Part shown: in pieces, positions 32,542 to 40,705 of the stretch
Layout: the number at the start of each line of letters is the position of its first letter
Numbering within the stretch: position 1 is the stretch's first letter
Assembly (NCBI GenBank): GCA_025963485.1
Contig: JAOQAO010000194.1
Span: 27,890 to 91,889 of the forward strand
Length of the DNA: 64,000 nucleotides
Source: Bacteroidota bacterium
GTDB lineage: Bacteria > Bacteroidota > Bacteroidia > Chitinophagales > LD1
Reading direction: 5' to 3'
Made by a program: the position numbers and the translations under genes
Notes under the pieces: model-generated
Told to the model about the DNA's origin: nothing
Database searches by the model: none
The model's input: the letters and a program-made list of their open reading frames with translations, nothing else

Positions 32542-32839
32542 GAGCGTATTTATGTAAGGATCAAATATAACAAAATGCCTGCGGAAGCCCGGCCCTGCAA
32601 TGGCTATCGCGGTCTTATCCAGGTATATCTATTGGGCGATTCGATATCGCGGGGTCATCAGTGATAAAAGTGATGAAGGAATAGGCTTTCATCATCACTG
32701 TTCTTGTACAACATTGCTAGTGTTATTGTCCCTCCAAATACGTGAATGATGTAACTATTAGGTGTAATAGTGTAACACTTTGGATTTTAATAGATTGTAC
32801 CTTTCCATCGGGAAAATTATTTCCTGTTTAAACTATACC

Positions 32840-35011
32840 ATGTTTCATATAAATAGACTTATTACTTTTCTTTTTGCCTTTTTAGCTTTCATCATTTCCG
32901 GGTTCTCGCAGGCACCTTCATTAGGCACTGCCGCTTCATTTGTATTATTTTCTACCAATGGAGCAGTGTCCAATGTCGGCATCACGCATCTCACCGGCAA
33001 TGTAGGCACCAATAATGGATCCAACACAGGTTTTGGTAATGTGAATGGTGTCATGCACAGTGCTGACGGTGCCACGGCTCAGTGCGCAGCAGACCTGCTC
33101 ACTGCCTATCATCAGCTGAATACAGCCACTGCCACGCACTTTCCCGCTCCGCTGCTGGGCAATGGGCAGACCCTGCCCGCGGGTGTGTACTCTATAGGCA
33201 GTGCTGCGACGCTGAATGGCAACCTGCTGCTGGATGCACAGAATAATGCCAGTGCAGTTTTTATCATCAAGATACAAGGTTCCTTCTCTACAGGCGCCGG
33301 GGCTAAAGTGAAACTCGTCAATGGTGCTCGCGCCTGCAATGTATACTGGAAGGTAGAAGGCCTCGTGGATATGGCCACGGGCACAAACATGAAAGGCACC
33401 CTCATCGTAAACAATGCCGCGATCAGTATGCATACCGGTGATACGCTGGAAGGCAGGGCGCTCACTACGACAGGTGCTGTGACTGTCGACGGCATTCTCG
33501 GATATACACCGATAGGCTGCGGTAGCCCTATACTGACCGGGCCATCCGCACCGGCACTCGCCTCATCAGAATGCTACGCTATATTTTCTGCCAATGGTGC
33601 TGTGACCAACTCCGGCATCACTCATGTCACCGGCGATGTAGGTACCAATGTCGGCCTGACCACAGGCTATGATACACTACTCGTCAATGGCAAGGTGCAT
33701 CCGATACCTGATGCATCTACCGCACAGTGCGCAGCAGACCTGCATACGGTCTATACCTATCTCAATACTATGCCCTACGATATCCAGCTACTATATCCTG
33801 CGCAGTTTGGCGGTGAGCTGGTACTGACACCACATACTTACCTGCTCAATGCTGCCACCGTGCTGACCGGCACGGTGTACCTCGATGCTCAGGGCAATGC
33901 CGGTGCAGTATTTGTGATCAAGATCAATGGTGCAATGTCTACGGGTACATATGCGCATGTGGTACTGATGAATAGTGCACAAGCGAAGAATGTTTTCTGG
34001 AAGATAGAAGGCGCTGTAAGCATAAACAACTATTCTACTTTCTGCGGCACGATCGTCTGCAACAATGGCGCCCTGAATGCACTTAATACAGGTGTGTCTA
34101 TAGATGGGAGGGCATTTACTACCGGTGGCCAGGTGACGACCAGTGCCATCACGGATATCATGCCTCCCGGCTGCACGTCCGGTGCGCCGAGTATCGGTAC
34201 GCAACCTAATAGCCAGTCGGCCTGCCTGGGCAGCGCGGCGAGTTTCTCCGCTGTGGCGCATGGCTCCGGCCTCACCTATCAGTGGAGGCGGGGAAATGTA
34301 AATATCACCAATGGCTCACATATCTCAGGAGCCACTGCCGCGATACTGACCATCGATCCTGTGGCGGCATCTGATGCAGCTTCCGATTATAATGTGATCG
34401 TAAGCGGTTCTTCCGGTCCCAAAGATACCTCCGCATACGTTTCTCTGATAGTACGAACTGCACCCGCTATCACCACTCCTCCTGCGAGCCAGATGGTATG
34501 TACAGGCGGTGCAGCGACTTTCTCAGTGAGCGCATCAGGCACGCAGCCTACCTATCAGTGGAGAAAAGGAAATGTAAACCTCGTCAATGCAGTAAATGTA
34601 TCCGGGGCTAATACACCTACACTGATCATAGACCCGGCGACAGCGCTGGATGCAGCGACTGACTATAATGTGGTAGTCACAGGCACATGTGCACCCGCCG
34701 CCACATCGGGCAATGCGGCACTCACTATATGTCCTACAGGTATCGCCACGATGGCCGGGAACGATCAAGCGGTGACCATATACCCAAATCCTTTTGGCGC
34801 GGTATTCACGATCAGTCTCAATGATGTATCTGCCATAGGTAAATATGAGATGAAGCTATACAATATACTCGGCGCAGAAGTGATGACCATCAGCATCACA
34901 AAGCAGCTGACCACAGTGGATGCTACTGACCTCGCAGCAGGGATCTATATATACAAGGTCAGCAGTAACAAAAAGGATATTCAGACGGGCAGGCTGGTGA
35001 CGCAGAAATAA
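32840..35011 (+). CDS. T9SS-secreted protein with two tandem ice-binding-like (DUF3494) domains and Ig-like repeats
   Basis: The signal peptide starts at the ATG at 32840. The DUF3494 pattern occurs twice (LGTAASFVLFSTNGAVSNVGITHLTGNVGTN...AVFIIKIQG...NVYWKVEG...GRALTTTGAVTVDG, and again from 33545). Two YQWR(R/K)GNVN repeats follow, then the CTD VTIYPNPFGAVFTISL...GIYIYKV. Confidence 0.85.
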   Translation: MFHINRLITFLFAFLAFIISGFSQAPSLGTAASFVLFSTNGAVSNVGITHLTGNVGTNNGSNTGFGNVNGVMHSADGATAQCAADLLTAYHQLNTATATHFPAPLLGNGQTLPAGVYSIGSAATLNGNLLLDAQNNASAVFIIKIQGSFSTGAGAKVKLVNGARACNVYWKVEGLVDMATGTNMKGTLIVNNAAISMHTGDTLEGRALTTTGAVTVDGILGYTPIGCGSPILTGPSAPALASSECYAIFSANGAVTNSGITHVTGDVGTNVGLTTGYDTLLVNGKVHPIPDASTAQCAADLHTVYTYLNTMPYDIQLLYPAQFGGELVLTPHTYLLNAATVLTGTVYLDAQGNAGAVFVIKINGAMSTGTYAHVVLMNSAQAKNVFWKIEGAVSINNYSTFCGTIVCNNGALNALNTGVSIDGRAFTTGGQVTTSAITDIMPPGCTSGAPSIGTQPNSQSACLGSAASFSAVAHGSGLTYQWRRGNVNITNGSHISGATAAILTIDPVAASDAASDYNVIVSGSSGPKDTSAYVSLIVRTAPAITTPPASQMVCTGGAATFSVSASGTQPTYQWRKGNVNLVNAVNVSGANTPTLIIDPATALDAATDYNVVVTGTCAPAATSGNAALTICPTGIATMAGNDQAVTIYPNPFGAVFTISLNDVSAIGKYEMKLYNILGAEVMTISITKQLTTVDATDLAAGIYIYKVSSNKKDIQTGRLVTQK

Positions 35012-35074: not shown

Positions 35075-35485
35075 ATGCAGAAGAAAATCATAATGATCAT
35101 AGATGACAATCCTCATGATAATTTCTTTACGAAAAGGGTGATCAAACAGAATGATGCGGACGATATTATCATTACTATGGAGTCGGCGGTATTGGCACTG
35201 GAATATTTAGAGGCAGGTACAGTTCCCAAACCCGATCTTATATTCCTGGACATATATATGCCTGTGATGGATGGTTGGGAGTTTCTCGACCGATACTGCA
35301 AACTGGATGCGGATTTGCGAATTGGATTAATGATCGTCATGCTCGCCACGTCCGGAGATCCTGCCCACGTACAGCGGGCTAAAACCTGGGATTGCATTTC
35401 GGAGTACATCATGAAACCTCTGACAATAGAAAAAATGGAAGGGCTTTCTGATAAATATTTTGTTGCGTCCCGGGAGGTATTATAA
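35075..35485 (+). CDS. Single-domain response regulator (class III, DDNPHDNFF type)
   Basis: 136 aa. Motifs: IIDDNPHDNFF, FLDIYMPVMDGWEFL, MLATSGDP, YIMKPLT. Confidence 0.85.
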   Translation: MQKKIIMIIDDNPHDNFFTKRVIKQNDADDIIITMESAVLALEYLEAGTVPKPDLIFLDIYMPVMDGWEFLDRYCKLDADLRIGLMIVMLATSGDPAHVQRAKTWDCISEYIMKPLTIEKMEGLSDKYFVASREVL

Positions 35486-35601
35486 ATGCCTGTTTCGCGC
35501 TATTGGTGATGATGTGACGCTTTGTGCTACTTGCTTACATAGATACCATCTTTGAGATTATGCATGTCGCGGCCATTCTGCCGTCCTGTCAATACTTGTA
35601 C

Positions 35602-36009
35602 ATGAAGAAGAAACTCATAATGATCATAGATGATAATCCTGATGACAATTTCTTTACGGAGAAAGTGATCCAACAGAATGATCCCGGGGATATTGTCATT
35701 ATCATGGAGGATGCAGCAAAGGCCCTGCAATATTTGCTGACAAAGGCAGACCCAAAGCCTGACCTGATATTCCTGGATATATATATGCCCAGTATGGATG
35801 GTTGGGAGTTTCTCGATGCATATTGCCTGCTTGACACGACCATACGCAGCGGGATAATGATCGTCATGCTGGCCACCTCAGGCGACCCTGCTCACATCGG
35901 GAGAGCGAATAGCTGGGATTGCATATCAGAGTATATCACCAAGCCATTGACGAAGGAAGCAATGAAAAATATTTCCCGTAAATACTTTAATACTCAGGAC
36001 GTGGCCTGA
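35602..36009 (+). CDS. Single-domain response regulator (class III)
   Basis: The ATG at 35602 gives MKKKLIMIIDDNPDDNFF. Also FLDIYMPSMDGWEFL, MLATSGDP and YITKPLT. Confidence 0.85.
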   Translation: MKKKLIMIIDDNPDDNFFTEKVIQQNDPGDIVIIMEDAAKALQYLLTKADPKPDLIFLDIYMPSMDGWEFLDAYCLLDTTIRSGIMIVMLATSGDPAHIGRANSWDCISEYITKPLTKEAMKNISRKYFNTQDVA

Positions 36010-36211: not shown

Positions 36212-38221
36212 ATGGACAAAAAAAAATCGGACGAGCTATTAATAGCTACCAGGGAGCTGGCTTTTCAATATGAAGAGAAAGCAAAACGCGCGGGTGAATT
36301 GCTCATTGCTAATGAAGAATTTCAAAAGCAGGGGGAGGCGCTGAGGAAATCCCATGAGCTTTTCCTTACACTATTTGAATATAATCATGCGGGCATTTCT
36401 GTCAGCAGGATCAGCGATGGCGTTTTGCTCAATGTGAATGATGCTTTCGTCAGGTTATTTGGTTTTGCTGACAAAGAAGATATCGTAGGCCGGGCCAGCC
36501 GTGATGTGATCCAGCACCTGGATGTCCGTCAGATGGAGCGTGCCTTTCTCGATATGAAGAAAAACGGACCGGGGAAAGAATTTGAAATGAACGTGCGGAC
36601 ACAGGGCGCCGAGCTCTGGGTCTCTATATCCCTCATGGAGGTGGAGATAGAGGATATCCCTTGTTGTTTATCGGCTTTCATAGACATCACCAGGCGCAAA
36701 AAAGTGGAAGACGAGCTAAAAGCAACAAACCAAAAGATGCTCCTCCAAAATGAGGAGAAAGAAAAGCGTACTGCCGAACGGCTCATAGCGATCAGGGAAC
36801 TCAGTTTTCAAAATGCGGAAAAGGAAAAACGGGCCGAGGAGCGTATCATAGCAAGGAGGGAGCTGACCTTTCAAAATGAAGAGAAAGAAAAACGGGCTGC
36901 TGAGCTGGTCATTGCCAATAGGGAACTTATCTTTCAAAACACAGAGAAAGAAAAACGGGCAGCGGAGCTGATCATAGCCAATAGGGAACTTGCTTTTCAA
37001 AACGAGGAAAAGGAGAAACGTGCGGCTGAGCTTATCATTGCCAACAGGGAACTCGTTTTCCAAAGCGAGGAGAAAGGGAAACGTGCAGCCGAGCTGATCA
37101 TAGCCAATAGAGAATTGATCTTTCAGAATGAAGAGAAAGAAAAGCGTGCGGCGGAATTGACCATTGCCAATCGGGAACTTGCCTTCCAAAATGAGGACAA
37201 AGAGAAACGTGCGGCTGAGCTGATCATAGCCAATAGGGAATTGATCTTTCAAAATGAGGAGAAAGAAAAGCGCGCAGATGAGCTGGTGATCGCAAACAGG
37301 GAGCTGGCATTCCAGAATGAAGAGAAAGAAAAACGCGCCGCCGAGCTTATCATTGCAAACCGGGAATTAGCCTTCCAAAGTGAAGAGAAGGGAAAACGCG
37401 CCGCCGAGCTGATCATTGCCAACAGGGAACTGGCATTCCAAAGCGAAGAAAAAGGTAAACGGGCGAATGAACTGATCATCGCCAATAGGGAGCTCAGCTA
37501 CCAAAATGAAGAGAAGGAAAAGCGCGCACATGAGCTGATCATCGCCAATGTAGAGCTGGAGCAATTTGCCTATGTGGCCTCGCATGACCTGCAGGAGCCA
37601 CTGCGTACGGTTTCCAACTATATGAAAGTTTTTGAGGAAGATTACCTGAATATATTTGACGATAATGCGCGCAAATACCTCAAAGCGGTAAATGAATCAG
37701 TAGAAAGGATGAGCCTGCTTATCAAATCATTGTTGGATTTTTCGCGGTTGGGCAGCAACAAGCAAGTGATCTCTGTGGACTGCGGCCATATGGTCTCCAA
37801 TGTGATAGCAGATCTCAATAAGATGATAAAAACATCAGGAGCGGTCATCGAGATAGGAGAATTGCCTATACTGAATGTCTACAAAACGCAGATCCGGCAG
37901 GTGTTCCAGAATCTTATTACCAATGCGATCAAATTTCAGAAGGAGGGGGTCCAGCCCAGGATACAGATACTGGCAGAGCAAGCGGATGGGGCATGGAAAT
38001 TCTCCGTCAGCGACAATGGCATTGGGATATCTTCCGATCATTTCGAAAAAGTCTTTGATATTTTCCAGCGTTTGCGTACTGACCGGACGTATGAGGGAAA
38101 CGGTATCGGACTTGCCAACTGTAAAAAGATAATACAACTGCATCAGGGAGAGATATGGATCGAGTCCGTACTCGGCCATGGGACTACTTTTTATTTCACC
38201 ATATCAAATATGACACCATGA
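36212..38221 (+). CDS. PAS sensor histidine kinase with a long tandem-repeat helical linker
   Basis: 669 aa with one PAS domain and 13 tandem 21-aa repeats. The H-box is FAYVASHDLQEPLR. The N box is QNLITNAIKF, with DNGIGI and GNGIGLAN G boxes. Confidence 0.9.
   Translation: MDKKKSDELLIATRELAFQYEEKAKRAGELLIANEEFQKQGEALRKSHELFLTLFEYNHAGISVSRISDGVLLNVNDAFVRLFGFADKEDIVGRASRDVIQHLDVRQMERAFLDMKKNGPGKEFEMNVRTQGAELWVSISLMEVEIEDIPCCLSAFIDITRRKKVEDELKATNQKMLLQNEEKEKRTAERLIAIRELSFQNAEKEKRAEERIIARRELTFQNEEKEKRAAELVIANRELIFQNTEKEKRAAELIIANRELAFQNEEKEKRAAELIIANRELVFQSEEKGKRAAELIIANRELIFQNEEKEKRAAELTIANRELAFQNEDKEKRAAELIIANRELIFQNEEKEKRADELVIANRELAFQNEEKEKRAAELIIANRELAFQSEEKGKRAAELIIANRELAFQSEEKGKRANELIIANRELSYQNEEKEKRAHELIIANVELEQFAYVASHDLQEPLRTVSNYMKVFEEDYLNIFDDNARKYLKAVNESVERMSLLIKSLLDFSRLGSNKQVISVDCGHMVSNVIADLNKMIKTSGAVIEIGELPILNVYKTQIRQVFQNLITNAIKFQKEGVQPRIQILAEQADGAWKFSVSDNGIGISSDHFEKVFDIFQRLRTDRTYEGNGIGLANCKKIIQLHQGEIWIESVLGHGTTFYFTISNMTP
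36739..37550 (+). repeat. Coding tandem repeat: about 13 units of 63 bp (21 aa, consensus AELIIANRELAFQNEEKEKRA)
   Basis: The string GAGCTGATCATAGCCAATAG recurs near 36965, 37091 and 37217, each 126 bp (2 x 63) apart. In the translation I count 13 consecutive xFQ(N/S)xEKxKR units. One and a half further units lie at the N-terminus (about 36227-36331). Confidence 0.9.
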
Positions 38222-38619
38222 ACAAGAAATTGAAATGCATCCTGCTGATCGATGACAATCCTCATGACAATTTTTTTCATGAGCGGGCGATCAAGGCATA
38301 CGATGAGACGGAGATCGTGGTCACCAAAGACTCAGGAGCGGAGGCGCTGGAATATTTAAAAGCAAAGACAGGCCCGCATTCCGACCTGATCTTTCTGGAT
38401 ATAAATATGCCGGCTATGAATGGCTGGGAATTTCTGCAACAATATAGCCAACTTGACAAAACCGTGCGTGAGCAAACAATAATAATCATGCTCACTACAT
38501 CAGCCAACCCCTCTGATATTGAGAAAGGGCAGAAAAATGCTTTCGTATCAGACTATATCACCAAGCCCCTGACCAAAGAAAAAATGCAACTGATCGCAGA
38601 TAAATATTTCGGGGAATGA
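38218..38619 (+). CDS. Single-domain response regulator (class III)
   Basis: The ATG at 38218 overlaps the kinase stop (ATGA). Sequence MNKKLKCILLIDDNPHDNFF, with FLDINMPAMNGWEFL, MLTTS and YITKPLT. Confidence 0.85.
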   Translation: MNKKLKCILLIDDNPHDNFFHERAIKAYDETEIVVTKDSGAEALEYLKAKTGPHSDLIFLDINMPAMNGWEFLQQYSQLDKTVREQTIIIMLTTSANPSDIEKGQKNAFVSDYITKPLTKEKMQLIADKYFGE

Positions 38620-38654
38620 ATACGGTCCACCGGATCGCAGACTAATAGGATACT

Positions 38655-39056
38655 ATGAACAAAAAACCGAGATGCATTATGCTGGTGGATGACAATCCGC
38701 ATGACAATTTCTTTCATGAGAGAGCGATCAAGGCAAACGATGCCGGTGATATTGTTTTGACCAAAGAATCAGCTGCCGATGCCCTGGAGTGTCTGAGATC
38801 TGATACGGATCCTCATTCCGACCTGATCTTTCTGGATATCAATATGCCGGGTATGAATGGTTGGGAGTTTCTCCGGGCATATAGTGAACTGGACAAGACA
38901 GTACAAGAGCAGAATATAATTATCATGCTCACCACCTCCGAGCATCCTGAAGATCTGAAGAAAACAGATAAGTGGAACTTTGTATCAGACTATATCACCA
39001 AGCCCCTGACCAAAGAAAAGATGAAAGCTATCGCTGATAAATATTTCAGGGAATAA
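38655..39056 (+). CDS. Single-domain response regulator (class III)
   Basis: 133 aa. Motifs: MLVDDNPHDNFF, FLDINMPGMNGWEFL, MLTTS, YITKPLT. Confidence 0.85.
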   Translation: MNKKPRCIMLVDDNPHDNFFHERAIKANDAGDIVLTKESAADALECLRSDTDPHSDLIFLDINMPGMNGWEFLRAYSELDKTVQEQNIIIMLTTSEHPEDLKKTDKWNFVSDYITKPLTKEKMKAIADKYFRE

Positions 39057-39124: not shown

Positions 39125-40705
39125 CTACTCTATCACAAATATATAGCGGCTGAATACATCAGCCTTCAGCTTTTCATTGTAGCGCTCCAACTTCTCGCTG
39201 GCGATGGCCTGGCGGCAGAGTTCGCGGACCTCGTCGAGGGGTTTCACCTTTGGTTCGTCTTTACGATAGGGGAGGATGAGGTGCATTGGTGCGTCTGGCC
39301 ATTCGCGTACGGGGGTGCTTACAGTATGCAGCGGAGTATTTTTGATCACTGTGTAGAGGTCATTGCTTGGGTCAAAGCTATGCTCTCCTTCGTTGGTAAT
39401 GACATAGCGGCCTTCGCCTTTTATTTTGAGGTCGGCTTGTTTAGTATCAGCGCTGAGCATTTCTTTTTTGACCTGTGCGATGGTAGCCGCTGACGAGTCT
39501 ATGAGTTCTGCTTTGAGGTATGCGCATAGGCCGTACTTTGCGTAGAGGTTCTGATGCGATGCATAGTATGCTTGGATCTCTGCTTCGGGTACCTGATTTA
39601 GTTTTTCTTTTTCAGCCTTCTCGTATTTCTCTGCCAGTTTTGAGTCGTAGGTGTTGCTTAGTATCCGGTCCAGTATGAGGCTATCCTGCACAGACATTTT
39701 TTTGAGTAGCCGGGCCTTCATCTCCGGTGTGCTCACATATGTCCTGAGCAGGACTATGAATGCATCGGGCTGCTGTGAGAAATGGAAGTGCGGGTTCACA
39801 CCCTGCACTTCGGTCAGGAAATCCTTGTTTATTGTGTCAGTGCCTATAGCGCCGTATATGACAGAAATATCTTTGCCTGTGATAGACTGTACTGCATCGA
39901 TATCCAGCCTCAGCGGTATCAGGCTGTCTGCCTGGTGCGCGATAGCTGTATATCGCAGCTCCGTTTTTTCTTTTTTTATGGCGGCCCTTAGTTCGCTTTG
40001 CACATTTTCTATCGGTATAGCTGTCTCGGGTATATAGTTGAGGACCATGTAGCAGGCCATATTGCTACCGCTTTTGCCACATACGATAGCGTCCTTCTGA
40101 CTGTGGGATAGCAGGGGGTACAGAGGTGTTTGCGGACTGATCGTCACATCCTGCTCCATATTGATGGACCATTTTTCATTCGCGCCTTTTTTGAAACTGC
40201 CCTTGTCCGCTCCGCCGGATGCGAGAGCTCTCATCTCCTGTTTGAGTGAATTGGTATCGCTTTCATGCCCCGGGTTCAGCACGCCTTGTATGAAAGTAGC
40301 CACTGCGTATTTTTTATAGTCCCGTGTATGCGTGTCATAGTATTTGCGGATATCAGCATCGGTGATGCCGTCAGCCACTTCATGCACCAGGGCGCTGTCA
40401 TAGAGTTCTGCTTTATACTTTATCGCCTTCCACTTGTTTATCCTGCGGATATAGGCAGAGTCTGCTACCGTGAGTTTGAATCCCGCTGCCTGCGCCTGCC
40501 CGCTCAGGTAGTAAGGTTTGACCAGTGGCTTGTAGAGATGGGTGGGTAGTTCGTCTGTGGTGATCTTTAGTCCCGGGTATTGCCATGCCAGCGCAGCCTG
40601 TGCTATGCGCGACACAGCTATGCGCTGCGGGTCAGATGCCTGTATGAAAAAAGGGCTTGCCATCATAGCGATGGCAAGCCCCGTCGATAATATTATTTTC
40701 TTCAT
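39125..40705 (-). CDS. Secreted hypothetical protein with SurA/PpiD-N-like chaperone phrases (no parvulin motif seen)
   Basis: 526 aa with a signal peptide. The phrase typical of SurA_N/PpiD-type chaperone modules occurs twice (DADIRKYYDTHTRDYKKY and EAEIQAYYASHQNLYAKY). Its start lies 4 bp downstream of the stop of fibre gene 40710..43649. Confidence 0.45.
   Translation of the reverse strand: MKKIILSTGLAIAMMASPFFIQASDPQRIAVSRIAQAALAWQYPGLKITTDELPTHLYKPLVKPYYLSGQAQAAGFKLTVADSAYIRRINKWKAIKYKAELYDSALVHEVADGITDADIRKYYDTHTRDYKKYAVATFIQGVLNPGHESDTNSLKQEMRALASGGADKGSFKKGANEKWSINMEQDVTISPQTPLYPLLSHSQKDAIVCGKSGSNMACYMVLNYIPETAIPIENVQSELRAAIKKEKTELRYTAIAHQADSLIPLRLDIDAVQSITGKDISVIYGAIGTDTINKDFLTEVQGVNPHFHFSQQPDAFIVLLRTYVSTPEMKARLLKKMSVQDSLILDRILSNTYDSKLAEKYEKAEKEKLNQVPEAEIQAYYASHQNLYAKYGLCAYLKAELIDSSAATIAQVKKEMLSADTKQADLKIKGEGRYVITNEGEHSFDPSNDLYTVIKNTPLHTVSTPVREWPDAPMHLILPYRKDEPKVKPLDEVRELCRQAIASEKLERYNEKLKADVFSRYIFVIE

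Follow-up and report, generated by a model that had tools for sequence, protein, structure and literature searches.

Gene context and domain organization of the kinase

The gene under study lies at positions 36212..38221 on the plus strand of the window, that is, of the entire 64,000-nucleotide stretch of DNA that was analyzed. The ORF list, together with Pfam matches to PAS_9/PAS, HisKA, and HATPase_c, identifies it as a sensor histidine kinase gene encoding 669 amino acids. The protein is a 100% match to the database entry [quoted passage not shown] and has no hydrophobic run of transmembrane length, which indicates that it is soluble. Genes for single-domain response regulators flank it on both sides, all on the plus strand. 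Upstream are RR1 (35075..35485; Pfam Response_reg, 7.1e-13) and RR2 (35602..36009), which is 71% identical to RR1 and probably starts with the ATG at 35602, the mechanically called ORF beginning at 35524. The downstream pair, RR3 (38218..38619) and RR4 (38655..39056), both recognized by Pfam, are 74% identical and appear as a 437-bp tandem repeat in the output of Tandem Repeats Finder (TRF). The ATG of RR3 overlaps the stop codon of the kinase gene (ATGA), an arrangement that suggests translational coupling.

Direct reading of the kinase shows that it begins with a cap, MDKKKSDEL, and 1.5 repeat units (aa 1-35; 36212..36316, plus strand). The repeat units occupy aa 5-35, and in the AF2 model they form part of a helix (aa 2-57) that continues toward the PAS domain. 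The same cap is present at the array start at loci L003-L010 of Mucilaginibacter, Hanamia, and Ferruginibacter. The PAS sensor domain (aa 49-160; 36356..36691, plus strand; PF13426, 1.1e-7, and PF00989, 1.9e-6) ends in a DIT motif, with which a degenerate junction unit begins (aa 158-178, DITRRKKVEDELKATNQKMLL; 36683..36745, plus strand). The register print-out places this unit in register with the array, DIT occupying unit positions 1-3 and E11, L12, and N16 being retained; its AF2 helix starts at aa 160. There follow 13 tandem units of 63 bp or 21 aa, each of three heptads, without interruption (aa 179-451; 36746..37564, plus strand; consensus QNEEKEKRAAELIIANRELAF), for which TRF, the protein register, unit tables, identity matrices, and a codon test were available. 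The final unit leads without a gap and in phase into the H-box FAYVASH458DLQEPLR of the HisKA/DHp domain (aa 449-515; 37556..37756, plus strand; PF00512, 4.7e-12), and the phospho-acceptor His458 (codon at 37583-37585) lies 12 residues past Asn16 of that unit. The HATPase_c catalytic domain (aa 559-664; 37886..38203, plus strand; PF02518, 2.1e-27) completes the protein, which has the hallmarks of a HisKA-type sensor histidine kinase, namely, an H-box histidine in DHp (SH458DLQEP) and HATPase_c. The solved structures nearest to its kinase core were 8f71 (2e-42), bacteriophytochrome kinases, HK853, and YF1. An earlier note on this DNA had described the 13 uninterrupted units, their direct passage into the H-box helix, and the one and a half units ahead of the PAS domain, and all three descriptions were borne out.

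Sequence divergence and age of the array

TRF, which had been proposed as a check on copy number, returned a period of 63 with 12.8 copies and 74% matches at 36744-37549; its rows at periods 126 and 189 are mere multiples of 63. On average, the 13 units are ~74% identical in DNA and ~82% identical in protein, and the reading frame is unbroken through all of them. The earlier note had seen near-identical units at a spacing of 126 bp and had taken them as a sign that the array grew recently by two units at a time. This near-identity was not confirmed: units 5 and 7, the most similar pair, share 56/63 nucleotides (89%), and the mean DNA identity was independent of spacing, with 74.6% at lag 1, 75.3% at lag 2, and 74.0% at lag 3. 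Identity between units amounted to 87%, 84%, and 48% at codon positions 1, 2, and 3, respectively, and the fraction of identical codons was 0.486, against a random expectation of 0.416-0.454, with no trend with lag. As judged from these sequence comparisons, the synonymous sites of the array are near saturation, and in this gene strong purifying selection acts on an old array. Recent expansion thus does not hold, given this near-saturation and the flat profile of identity against spacing; by high synonymous divergence, which the note itself had named as one mark of an old array, it is ancient.

Predicted structure and composition of the array

The AF2 models predict a helix from the PAS exit to DHp helix 1, in agreement with the helical spacer between PAS domain and kinase that had been proposed. 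The full-length model contains helices at aa 160-291 and 295-477, the latter passing His458, with a pLDDT of just 45-70 over the array. The second model (aa 158-493) was also helical, with a pLDDT of 80-91 and helices at fragment positions 2-147 and 156-302. The sole break, with a pLDDT of <50, was located at aa 292-294 in the full-length model versus aa 305-312 in the fragment; because it shifts between constructs, it points to fold-back of the monomer and not to a fixed turn.

The array (273 aa) contains no Pro and 3 Gly. Glu, Lys, and Arg make up 42% of its residues and large hydrophobic residues (ILVFMWY) 24.5%, no run without the latter exceeding 12 aa. Each unit combines one wholly polar heptad (QNEEKEK) with two hydrophobic ones (RAAELII ANRELAF), and its EEKEKRA segment carries opposite-charge pairs at i/i+4 spacing (2.85 per unit). 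The periodicity of hydrophobicity at 3.5 residues was moderate, with an amplitude of 0.51 versus 0.96 at period 7.

A repeat family in signaling proteins

The unit matched at least 7800 database proteins, and the motif was present in 1582 clusters (50% identity). The earlier note had been unable to place an array of this length; among the 120 best database matches, 73 carried at least 13 units, and the maximum was 26. The array also occurs in an isolate genome, that of Mucilaginibacter flavidus RT5R15. Within the family, arrays join PAS, GAF, CHASE3, and REC inputs to histidine kinase (HK), SpoIIE/PP2C, GGDEF, HD-GYP, and cyclase outputs. Pfam architectures included PAS+array+SpoIIE, array+PAS+GGDEF, GGDEF+HD-GYP, GAF+array+cyclase, and CHASE3+array+HK, and in the majority the array lies between sensor and output. 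The unit defines a repeat family, mostly from Bacteroidota in these searches, whose members use it as a generic linker between sensor and output. In about 30 of the 120 best matches, no sensor domain was recognized ahead of the array, so that it cannot act as a wire alone there; loci L008 and L010 likewise comprise nothing but cap, array, and kinase core. A full-text literature search with motif substrings gave no match and a keyword search only general coiled-coil and S-helix literature, so that no description of the repeat family was found in these searches.

Heptad phase, conservation, and changes in copy number

Across the family, 1647 of the 1651 within-array steps (99.8%) are multiples of 7 aa; 1614 measure 21 aa, and nearly all of the remainder 14 or 28 aa. 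The distance from Asn16 to the histidine follows 12+7n in 82 of 95 cases, which cover three H-box types, and is exactly 12 in 58 family members. For the distance between the PAS DIT motif and Asn16, obtained with a loose regular expression and too noisy to be relied on, 15+7n was the commonest class (25/57). The within-array steps and the distances to the histidine agree with the earlier proposal that heptad register is kept. Conservation over 1797 units was at least 92% at each of the positions Q1, E4, K5, R8, A9, E11, L12, A15, N16, E18, and L19, and reached 79% at Ile14 and Phe21. Variable positions are confined to two of the seven heptad columns, 3/10/17 and 6/13/20, which mark one exposed face; the other five columns are conserved.

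Gain and loss of whole units, also proposed earlier, does occur in relatives. Near-identical alleles differ by one 21-aa indel and one 63-aa indel, corresponding to one and three units, and arrays of Mucilaginibacter orthologues differ in length by about five units. In the course of evolution, copy number shifts in steps of whole units or heptads. A unit-by-unit comparison of L004 with L006 gave a weak diagonal only. Searches for orthologues of the kinase itself retrieved sequences of at most 33% identity over the PAS part from genome contigs (query aa 1-178) and of at most 36% identity from metagenome contigs (query aa 37-178).

A long signaling coiled coil as the preferred reading

We consider it probable (roughly 0.6) that the array forms one ~40-nm dimeric, parallel, and marginally stable coiled coil that relays the PAS signal to the kinase. 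The 13 units and the degenerate unit would form a single continuous helix of ~40-48 nm that runs from the PAS DIT motif to the His458-bearing DHp helix and keeps a constant heptad phase relative to His458. In the obligate homodimer of the kinase, the two arrays most likely pair in parallel and in register, as suggested by the obligate dimerization of HisKA and the Asn-at-'a' pattern. In a register extended from the DHp core, 'a' would be filled by Asn2, Ala9, and Asn16 and 'd' by Lys5, Leu12, and Leu19, so that the core would resemble GCN4 in its Asn at 'a' and the S-helix in its basic 'd' residue; Gln1/Arg8/Ala15 would form another conserved seam beside the Leu seam. Because of the polar core residues and the second seam, the coil should be marginally stable or "slippery." The PAS signal could then reach the kinase as a rotation of the helix or as a shift in register, propagated cooperatively from one identical unit to the next. 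Mechanistic precedents are the heptad-dependent linkers of PAS/LOV kinases (PMC6798134) and the "slippery" coiled coils with two overlapping registers in PadC, DgcR, LadC, and BvgS (PMC12805367).

Several observations count against this model. Ile14 and Phe21 are conserved yet fall at the outermost 'f' position in the DHp-derived register, and the five conserved columns exceed the need of a two-stranded coil, a hint of additional packing or of an interacting partner. The moderate 3.5-residue periodicity and the low pLDDT of the array in the full-length model also speak against a coiled coil, the sensor-less best matches against a role as a wire only. In addition, passing a torsional signal across 40 nm is physically demanding, and the linkers of natural phytochrome kinases keep close to a single length (PMC11164954).

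Alternative explanations

It is scarcely credible that the array arose as an artefact of assembly or represents a fast-slipping contingency repeat of meaningless present length. In favor of this reading, the source is metagenome-assembled, other family members have near-identical alleles that differ by whole-unit indels, and relative L009 carries a masked N-run within its array. Near-identical units and long exact repeats, by which slippage-prone contingency repeats are recognized, are seen in some relatives (L005 and L009, with units up to 95-98% identical), but not in this array. Its longest exact internal repeat is just 24 bp, which makes an artefact unlikely, and together with the ~74% DNA identity this means that reads or k-mers can be placed uniquely and that substrates for slippage are poor. 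Near-saturated synonymous sites, a frame intact over 13 units, and the recurrence of similar arrays across thousands of independent assemblies, the M. flavidus isolate included, point the same way. Single alpha-helices of the ER/K type are known from myosin VI/X and caldesmon, and the earlier note had likened the EEKEKR segment to them. The array shares their i/i+4 salt-bridge spacing and is modeled as helix throughout, but a monomeric helix of this kind, acting as a pure spacer between PAS domain and kinase, is extremely improbable. Sequences of this type are dominated by E, K, and R and almost devoid of large hydrophobic residues, whereas the array has the composition given above, two-thirds of its unit being conserved hydrophobic or Asn-containing sequence with Leu12, Leu19, Ile14, and Phe21 retained. 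Furthermore, the AF2 helix folds back and buries a face instead of staying extended, and the conserved heptad phase would be needless in a single alpha-helix. That fold-back could in turn be taken at face value, with the array forming an antiparallel hairpin, the dimer a four-helix bundle like the cytoplasmic domain of chemoreceptors, and the PAS domain lying near the kinase. Both monomer models have one break and two long helices, and the five conserved columns, with the hydrophobic half of the unit hydrophobic around most of its circumference, would suit a bundle. However, the break moves with the construct and has a low pLDDT, the usual behavior of monomer predictions in which a dimer interface becomes buried. 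Pro is absent from the family, as is any conserved turn unit, and Gly, which reaches 13% at a single position, shows no bias toward the array center in these data. Odd as well as even unit numbers occur, and single-unit indels would unbalance a hairpin. Such a fold is therefore very improbable.

An unlikely reading that touches the family as a whole is that the array is not a passive wire but an input or assembly module, that is, a physical sensor or a shared interaction surface. As a sensor, it would be length-tuned and respond to temperature or ionic strength via reversible melting of the coiled coil; as an assembly module, it would let signaling enzymes bearing the motif pair or cluster with each other or with a common partner. 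The proteins reduced to cap, array, and kinase core (~30 of the 120 best matches, plus L008 and L010) favor this reading. So does the near invariance of the surface residues Q1, E4, R8, E11, and E18 and of Ile14 and Phe21 at 'f' over 1797 units, a degree of conservation beyond the requirements of a generic coiled coil. Moreover, half of the core is polar (N, K, and N at a/d), which would make stability marginal and tunable through copy number, and identical units permit out-of-register or heterotypic pairing in principle. On the other hand, this kinase has a PAS domain directly upstream and in register, most family architectures have the array between sensor and output, strict heptad phase to the phospho-histidine is what a transmitting helix requires, and no partner gene is evident in the neighborhood. 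More specifically, the unit could form a coiled coil of marginal stability, programmable through copy number, that either senses a physical variable (temperature, ionic strength, or crowding) or zips many motif-bearing Bacteroidota signaling enzymes into hetero-oligomers. This proposal is decidedly unlikely; sensing would proceed by cooperative melting or a register shift, and gain or loss of units would tune the set-point.

Comparison with known linkers

The long signaling coiled coil that we favor has several partial counterparts. Poly-HAMP arrays, as in Aer2 and the fungal group III kinases Nik1/Os-1, place a variable number of tandem helical modules between the N terminus or sensor and the output, each HAMP unit being a helix-connector-helix four-helix bundle of ~50 residues. 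The array likewise consists of tandem helical modules, variable in number, ahead of the kinase or other output, but its units have 21 aa and no connector, and no HAMP family was among the Pfam matches of the kinase at E ≤ 0.01. The S-helix (Anantharaman, Balaji and Aravind 2006, PMC1592074) is a single ~40-residue module with five heptads, the central one of which carries an ERT signature at c-d-e, and it forms a coiled coil between PAS/GAF/CHASE-type sensors and histidine kinase/PP2C/GGDEF/HD-GYP/cyclase outputs (PMC1592074). The repeat family occupies the same niche between sensor and output and shares Asn at 'a' and a basic 'd' after Glu at 'c', with E4-K5-E6 of the unit at c-d-e in the DHp-derived register. 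It differs in its 21-aa unit, in its up to 26 copies, and in far stronger conservation at nearly every position, and neither ERT nor E[RK][TS] occurs in the array.

In FixL, YF1 (4GCZ), and bacteriophytochrome kinases, a helix similarly leads from the PAS DIT motif into DHp helix 1. The core of the kinase studied here is of the same subfamily as theirs. Linkers between PAS, LOV, or phytochrome domains and DHp have lengths that follow heptad periodicity (PMC6798134), as does the array. Natural phytochrome-kinase linkers, however, stay within ~10 residues of one length (PMC11164954), whereas the array linker comprises ~290 residues of near-identical repeats. In the linkers of IsPadC, DgcR, MsLadC, and BvgS (PMC12805367, PMC5829827), overlapping heptad patterns share one hydrophobic seam, with polar Asn, Lys, or Gln in the core. 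The Leu12/Leu19 seam of the array unit, flanked by two conserved columns, resembles this pattern, register switching itself being conjectural here; those linkers are short (few heptads) and nonrepetitive.

It is disputed whether signals travel along the helical linker of sensor kinases by rotation, piston movement, register switch, or local unfolding, and the linkers studied so far comprise few heptads. The family constitutes a natural length series of 1 to ~26 copies (up to ~80 nm) of a near-invariant 21-residue unit. As its members all keep strict heptad phase to the phospho-histidine and are found on at least five classes of output enzymes, the series offers a test of signal reach and mechanism; synthetic two-component systems might also use the array as a tunable component.

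Annotation of the repeat

Neither Pfam nor NCBIfam returned a significant model match for the repeat, and without a model such regions are at present unannotated or spuriously annotated (PH_SLA1, CMV_1a_C). The array in this kinase gave a match to PF24081 PH_SLA1, no stretch of which passed, and one to TIGR01456 (6.5e-4), far under the cut-off; both are compositional noise. A PDB sequence search with the array yielded nothing beyond the H-box end. The antisense ORF at 36716-37252 (178 aa) is a mechanical consequence of the repeat being free of stops, and the repeated minus-strand sigma-70 "promoters" that the promoter/terminator scan placed inside the array are the repeat itself.

The repeat array and its family

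The sensor histidine kinase under study, an ORF of 669 aa at nt 36212-38221 (+), contains PAS (aa 49-160), HisKA (aa 449-515) and HATPase_c (aa 559-664) domains according to Pfam, and the closest matches of its kinase core are 8f71 and bacteriophytochrome kinases. Printing the protein in 21-residue lines revealed 13 uninterrupted units at aa 179-451 (nt 36746-37564) and, in the same register, a preceding degenerate unit (aa 158-178) that starts at the DIT motif of the PAS domain; 1.5 additional units were read directly after the N-terminal MDKKKSDEL (aa 5-35). Tandem Repeats Finder reported a period of 63 bp, 12.8 copies and 74% matches between PAS and HisKA, so that the array and its coordinates had been described correctly in the earlier note. 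The unit consensus is QNEEKEKRAAELIIANRELAF, and the last unit is followed by ...ELIIANVELEQFAYVASH458DLQEPLR. The motif was not found in other genes of the 64-kb window.

This array is real and ancient, and is a long member of a widespread family of 21-residue repeats. An identical protein, P0001, is listed in the public collection as a kinase from a Bacteroidetes MAG, and at least 7,800 proteins matched at E <= 1e-10 (7,800 of 8,000 scored candidates). A position matrix derived from the 13 window units detected 1,797 units in the 120 best hits, of which 73 contained at least 13 units; the longest arrays among the hits had 26, 24 and 23 contiguous units. Exactly 21 aa separated the units in 1,614 of 1,651 within-array steps in these 120 proteins, nearly all remaining steps were 14 or 28 aa, and 99.8% were multiples of 7. 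Q1, E4, K5, R8, A9, E11, L12, A15, N16, E18 and L19 were each conserved in at least 92% of the 1,797 units, and variable positions were confined to two heptad columns (3/10/17 and 6/13/20). The 28-aa variant has an additional polar heptad, EKEKRAA (P0010, P0012, P0016, P0023), and the 14-aa variant lacks LAFQNEE (P0003, P0014, P0037, P0098). The latter reads ANKE|KGKRAAEL, often with Gly, and forms runs in some proteins.

With a three-unit query and no filters, HMMER retrieved 1,582 proteins at E <= 1e-3, 427 of them at E <= 1e-30, from 1.84 billion representatives clustered at 50% identity, and 30 of the top 150 had at least 13 units. Judged by source names, nearly all named members are Bacteroidota, including Chitinophagaceae, Cytophagaceae, Cyclobacteriaceae, Flavobacterium, Mucilaginibacter, Puia and Mariniphaga; the exceptions among the labels seen were one 'FCB group' and one Clostridia MAG. 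The latter protein (P0269, from the cluster of P0158; array, PAS and GGDEF/HD) is labelled 'Clostridia bacterium' by NCBI, which could reflect mis-binning or horizontal transfer. No match to the repeat was found among Pfam and NCBIfam models or PDB sequences, and no description in the papers searched; the family is apparently undescribed.

Age of the array and changes in unit number

The mean pairwise identity between window units was approximately 74% for DNA and 82% for protein, with 87%, 84% and 48% at codon positions 1, 2 and 3. Codon pairs encoding the same residue used the same codon in 48.6% of cases, against random expectations of 41.6% (window codon usage) and 45.4% (the array's own usage), and this fraction showed no trend across lags 1 to 8. 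The closest pair of units was 89% identical, and lag-2 identity did not exceed lag-1 identity. Given these values, the recent expansion in 126-bp steps proposed earlier is wrong; the units are old duplicates whose protein sequence is maintained by purifying selection. The longest exact repeat within the array is 24 bp, which makes assembly collapse or expansion unlikely and the array a poor substrate for slippage.

An orthologue of the kinase gene was not found in the genome and metagenome contig collections searched. Among relatives, one Mucilaginibacter orthologue has 15 units and another 20, a difference of 105 aa or five units; elsewhere the two are 68-88% identical across aligned blocks. 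A second orthologue pair shows 14-aa and 7-aa indels and unit DNA identities of up to 95-98%, indicative of units that were recently duplicated or converted. Within 90%-identity clusters, one 21-aa unit separates P0146 from P0266, which are otherwise 99.8-100% identical, and P0158 and P0270 differ by three units, with 97% identity after the indel and 88% before it. These differences, observed in metagenome assemblies, argue that gain and loss of whole units and whole heptads are real in the family; the length variation by whole units suggested in the earlier note thus holds for relatives and not for the window array. In the Mucilaginibacter MAG locus L009, an N-run (34 X when translated) lies inside the array, approximately 310-345 aa into the ORF; units of this array are up to 98% identical, and the run probably reflects masking or a gap in the assembly where the array was recently homogenised.

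Helix prediction and heptad phase

AF2 predicted the array region to be helical, with helices at 160-291 and 295-477 in the full-length model (array pLDDT 45-70), the second of which passes His458 and reaches the end of DHp helix 1. A single-sequence model of aa 158-493 again gave two long helices (pLDDT 80-91), with the break now at aa 305-312, roughly halfway along the construct. Because the break moves with the construct, as expected of a monomer model that buries a dimer interface, we read it as evidence of a partner-seeking face and not of a real turn. As one helix, the 273 residues would measure approximately 41 nm and aa 160-477 approximately 48 nm. The resemblance to an ER/K single helix noted earlier was not borne out by the composition of the array, since E, K and R account for 42%, large hydrophobic residues for 24.5%, and no stretch free of the latter exceeds 12 aa; the array has no Pro and 3 Gly.

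Asn16 of the last unit lies 12 residues before the phospho-accepting His in 58 proteins and 12+7n residues before it in 82 of 95, which indicates that the heptad phase between the array and the catalytic helix is fixed. If the DHp core (H-5, H-2, H+2) is continued backward, Asn2/Ala9/Asn16 would fall at 'a', a pattern reminiscent of GCN4, and Lys5/Leu12/Leu19 at 'd'. Conservation is centred one column away, on Gln1/Arg8/Ala15 adjoining the Leu seam, so that two overlapping registers with a common Leu seam are possible, similar to those described for 'slippery' register-switching linkers (PMC12805367). Ile14 and Phe21 are also conserved, at a position that faces outward in the DHp-derived register.

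Domain architectures and possible function

Pfam scans showed that the array is not restricted to kinases. Family members include PAS + 20 units + SpoIIE/PP2C, 13 units + SpoIIE, 16 units + PAS + GGDEF, array + GGDEF + HD-GYP, GAF + 13 units + class III cyclase, CHASE3 + array + kinase, and REC + PAS + array + kinase, and at least three H-box types (SHDLxEP, SHELRTP, SHEIRTP) are joined to arrays. The N-terminal cap MDKKKSDEL(I/V/L)IA (nt 36212-36238 in the window; around position 6001 in L003-L010, contig loci of array-bearing relatives) recurs near-verbatim in array proteins of Mucilaginibacter, Hanamia and Ferruginibacter whose kinase cores differ considerably, and appears to be a conserved module with which the array starts.

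The array is most likely a signalling coiled coil, dimeric and marginally stable, that connects sensors to dimeric output enzymes; its oligomeric state is our inference, and a signal would presumably pass along it from sensor to output. No sensor domain is listed in approximately 30 of the 120 best hits, and short proteins in L008 and L010 consist of just the cap, 3-4 units and a kinase core; a less likely reading is that the array acts as an input or assembly module in its own right. As a signalling coiled coil, the array would work similarly to PAS-DHp linkers and the signalling helix (S-helix), which is defined by its niche as sensor-to-output linker (PMC1592074), a niche that the family also occupies. 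However, the S-helix is one segment of approximately 40 residues with an ERT signature (PMC1592074), whereas the array consists of repeated units and lacks this defining signature, ERT being absent from the window array; E4-K5-E6, at c-d-e in the proposed register, is reminiscent of it. Natural phytochrome-kinase linkers vary in length by only about ±10 residues (PMC11164954), whereas the array is far longer, and its regularity and length are unprecedented.

Genomic neighbourhood

The kinase gene lies between two tandem-duplicate pairs of single-domain response regulators, RR1/RR2 (35075-36009, +; 71% identical) and RR3/RR4 (38218-39056, +; 74% identical), with 52-55% identity across pairs and a DDNPxDNFF motif in all four receivers. 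The start of RR3 overlaps the kinase stop codon (ATGA), which suggests that the two form a cognate pair. A 178-aa antisense ORF through the repeat (36716-37252, -) and minus-strand sigma-70-like hexamers every 126 or 252 bp in the array were dismissed as by-products of the repeat, and not a gene or promoters. Directly upstream of the two-component cluster, a 743-aa protein (32780-35011, +) contains two Ice_binding-like domains (PF11999, 1.5e-70), two Ig domains and a T9SS C-terminal sorting domain, features suggestive of an origin in Bacteroidota and possibly of a cold habitat. Convergent with the end of the receiver genes is a 526-aa protein (39125-40705, -) with a PPIC-type rotamase domain (PF13145, 2.1e-7).
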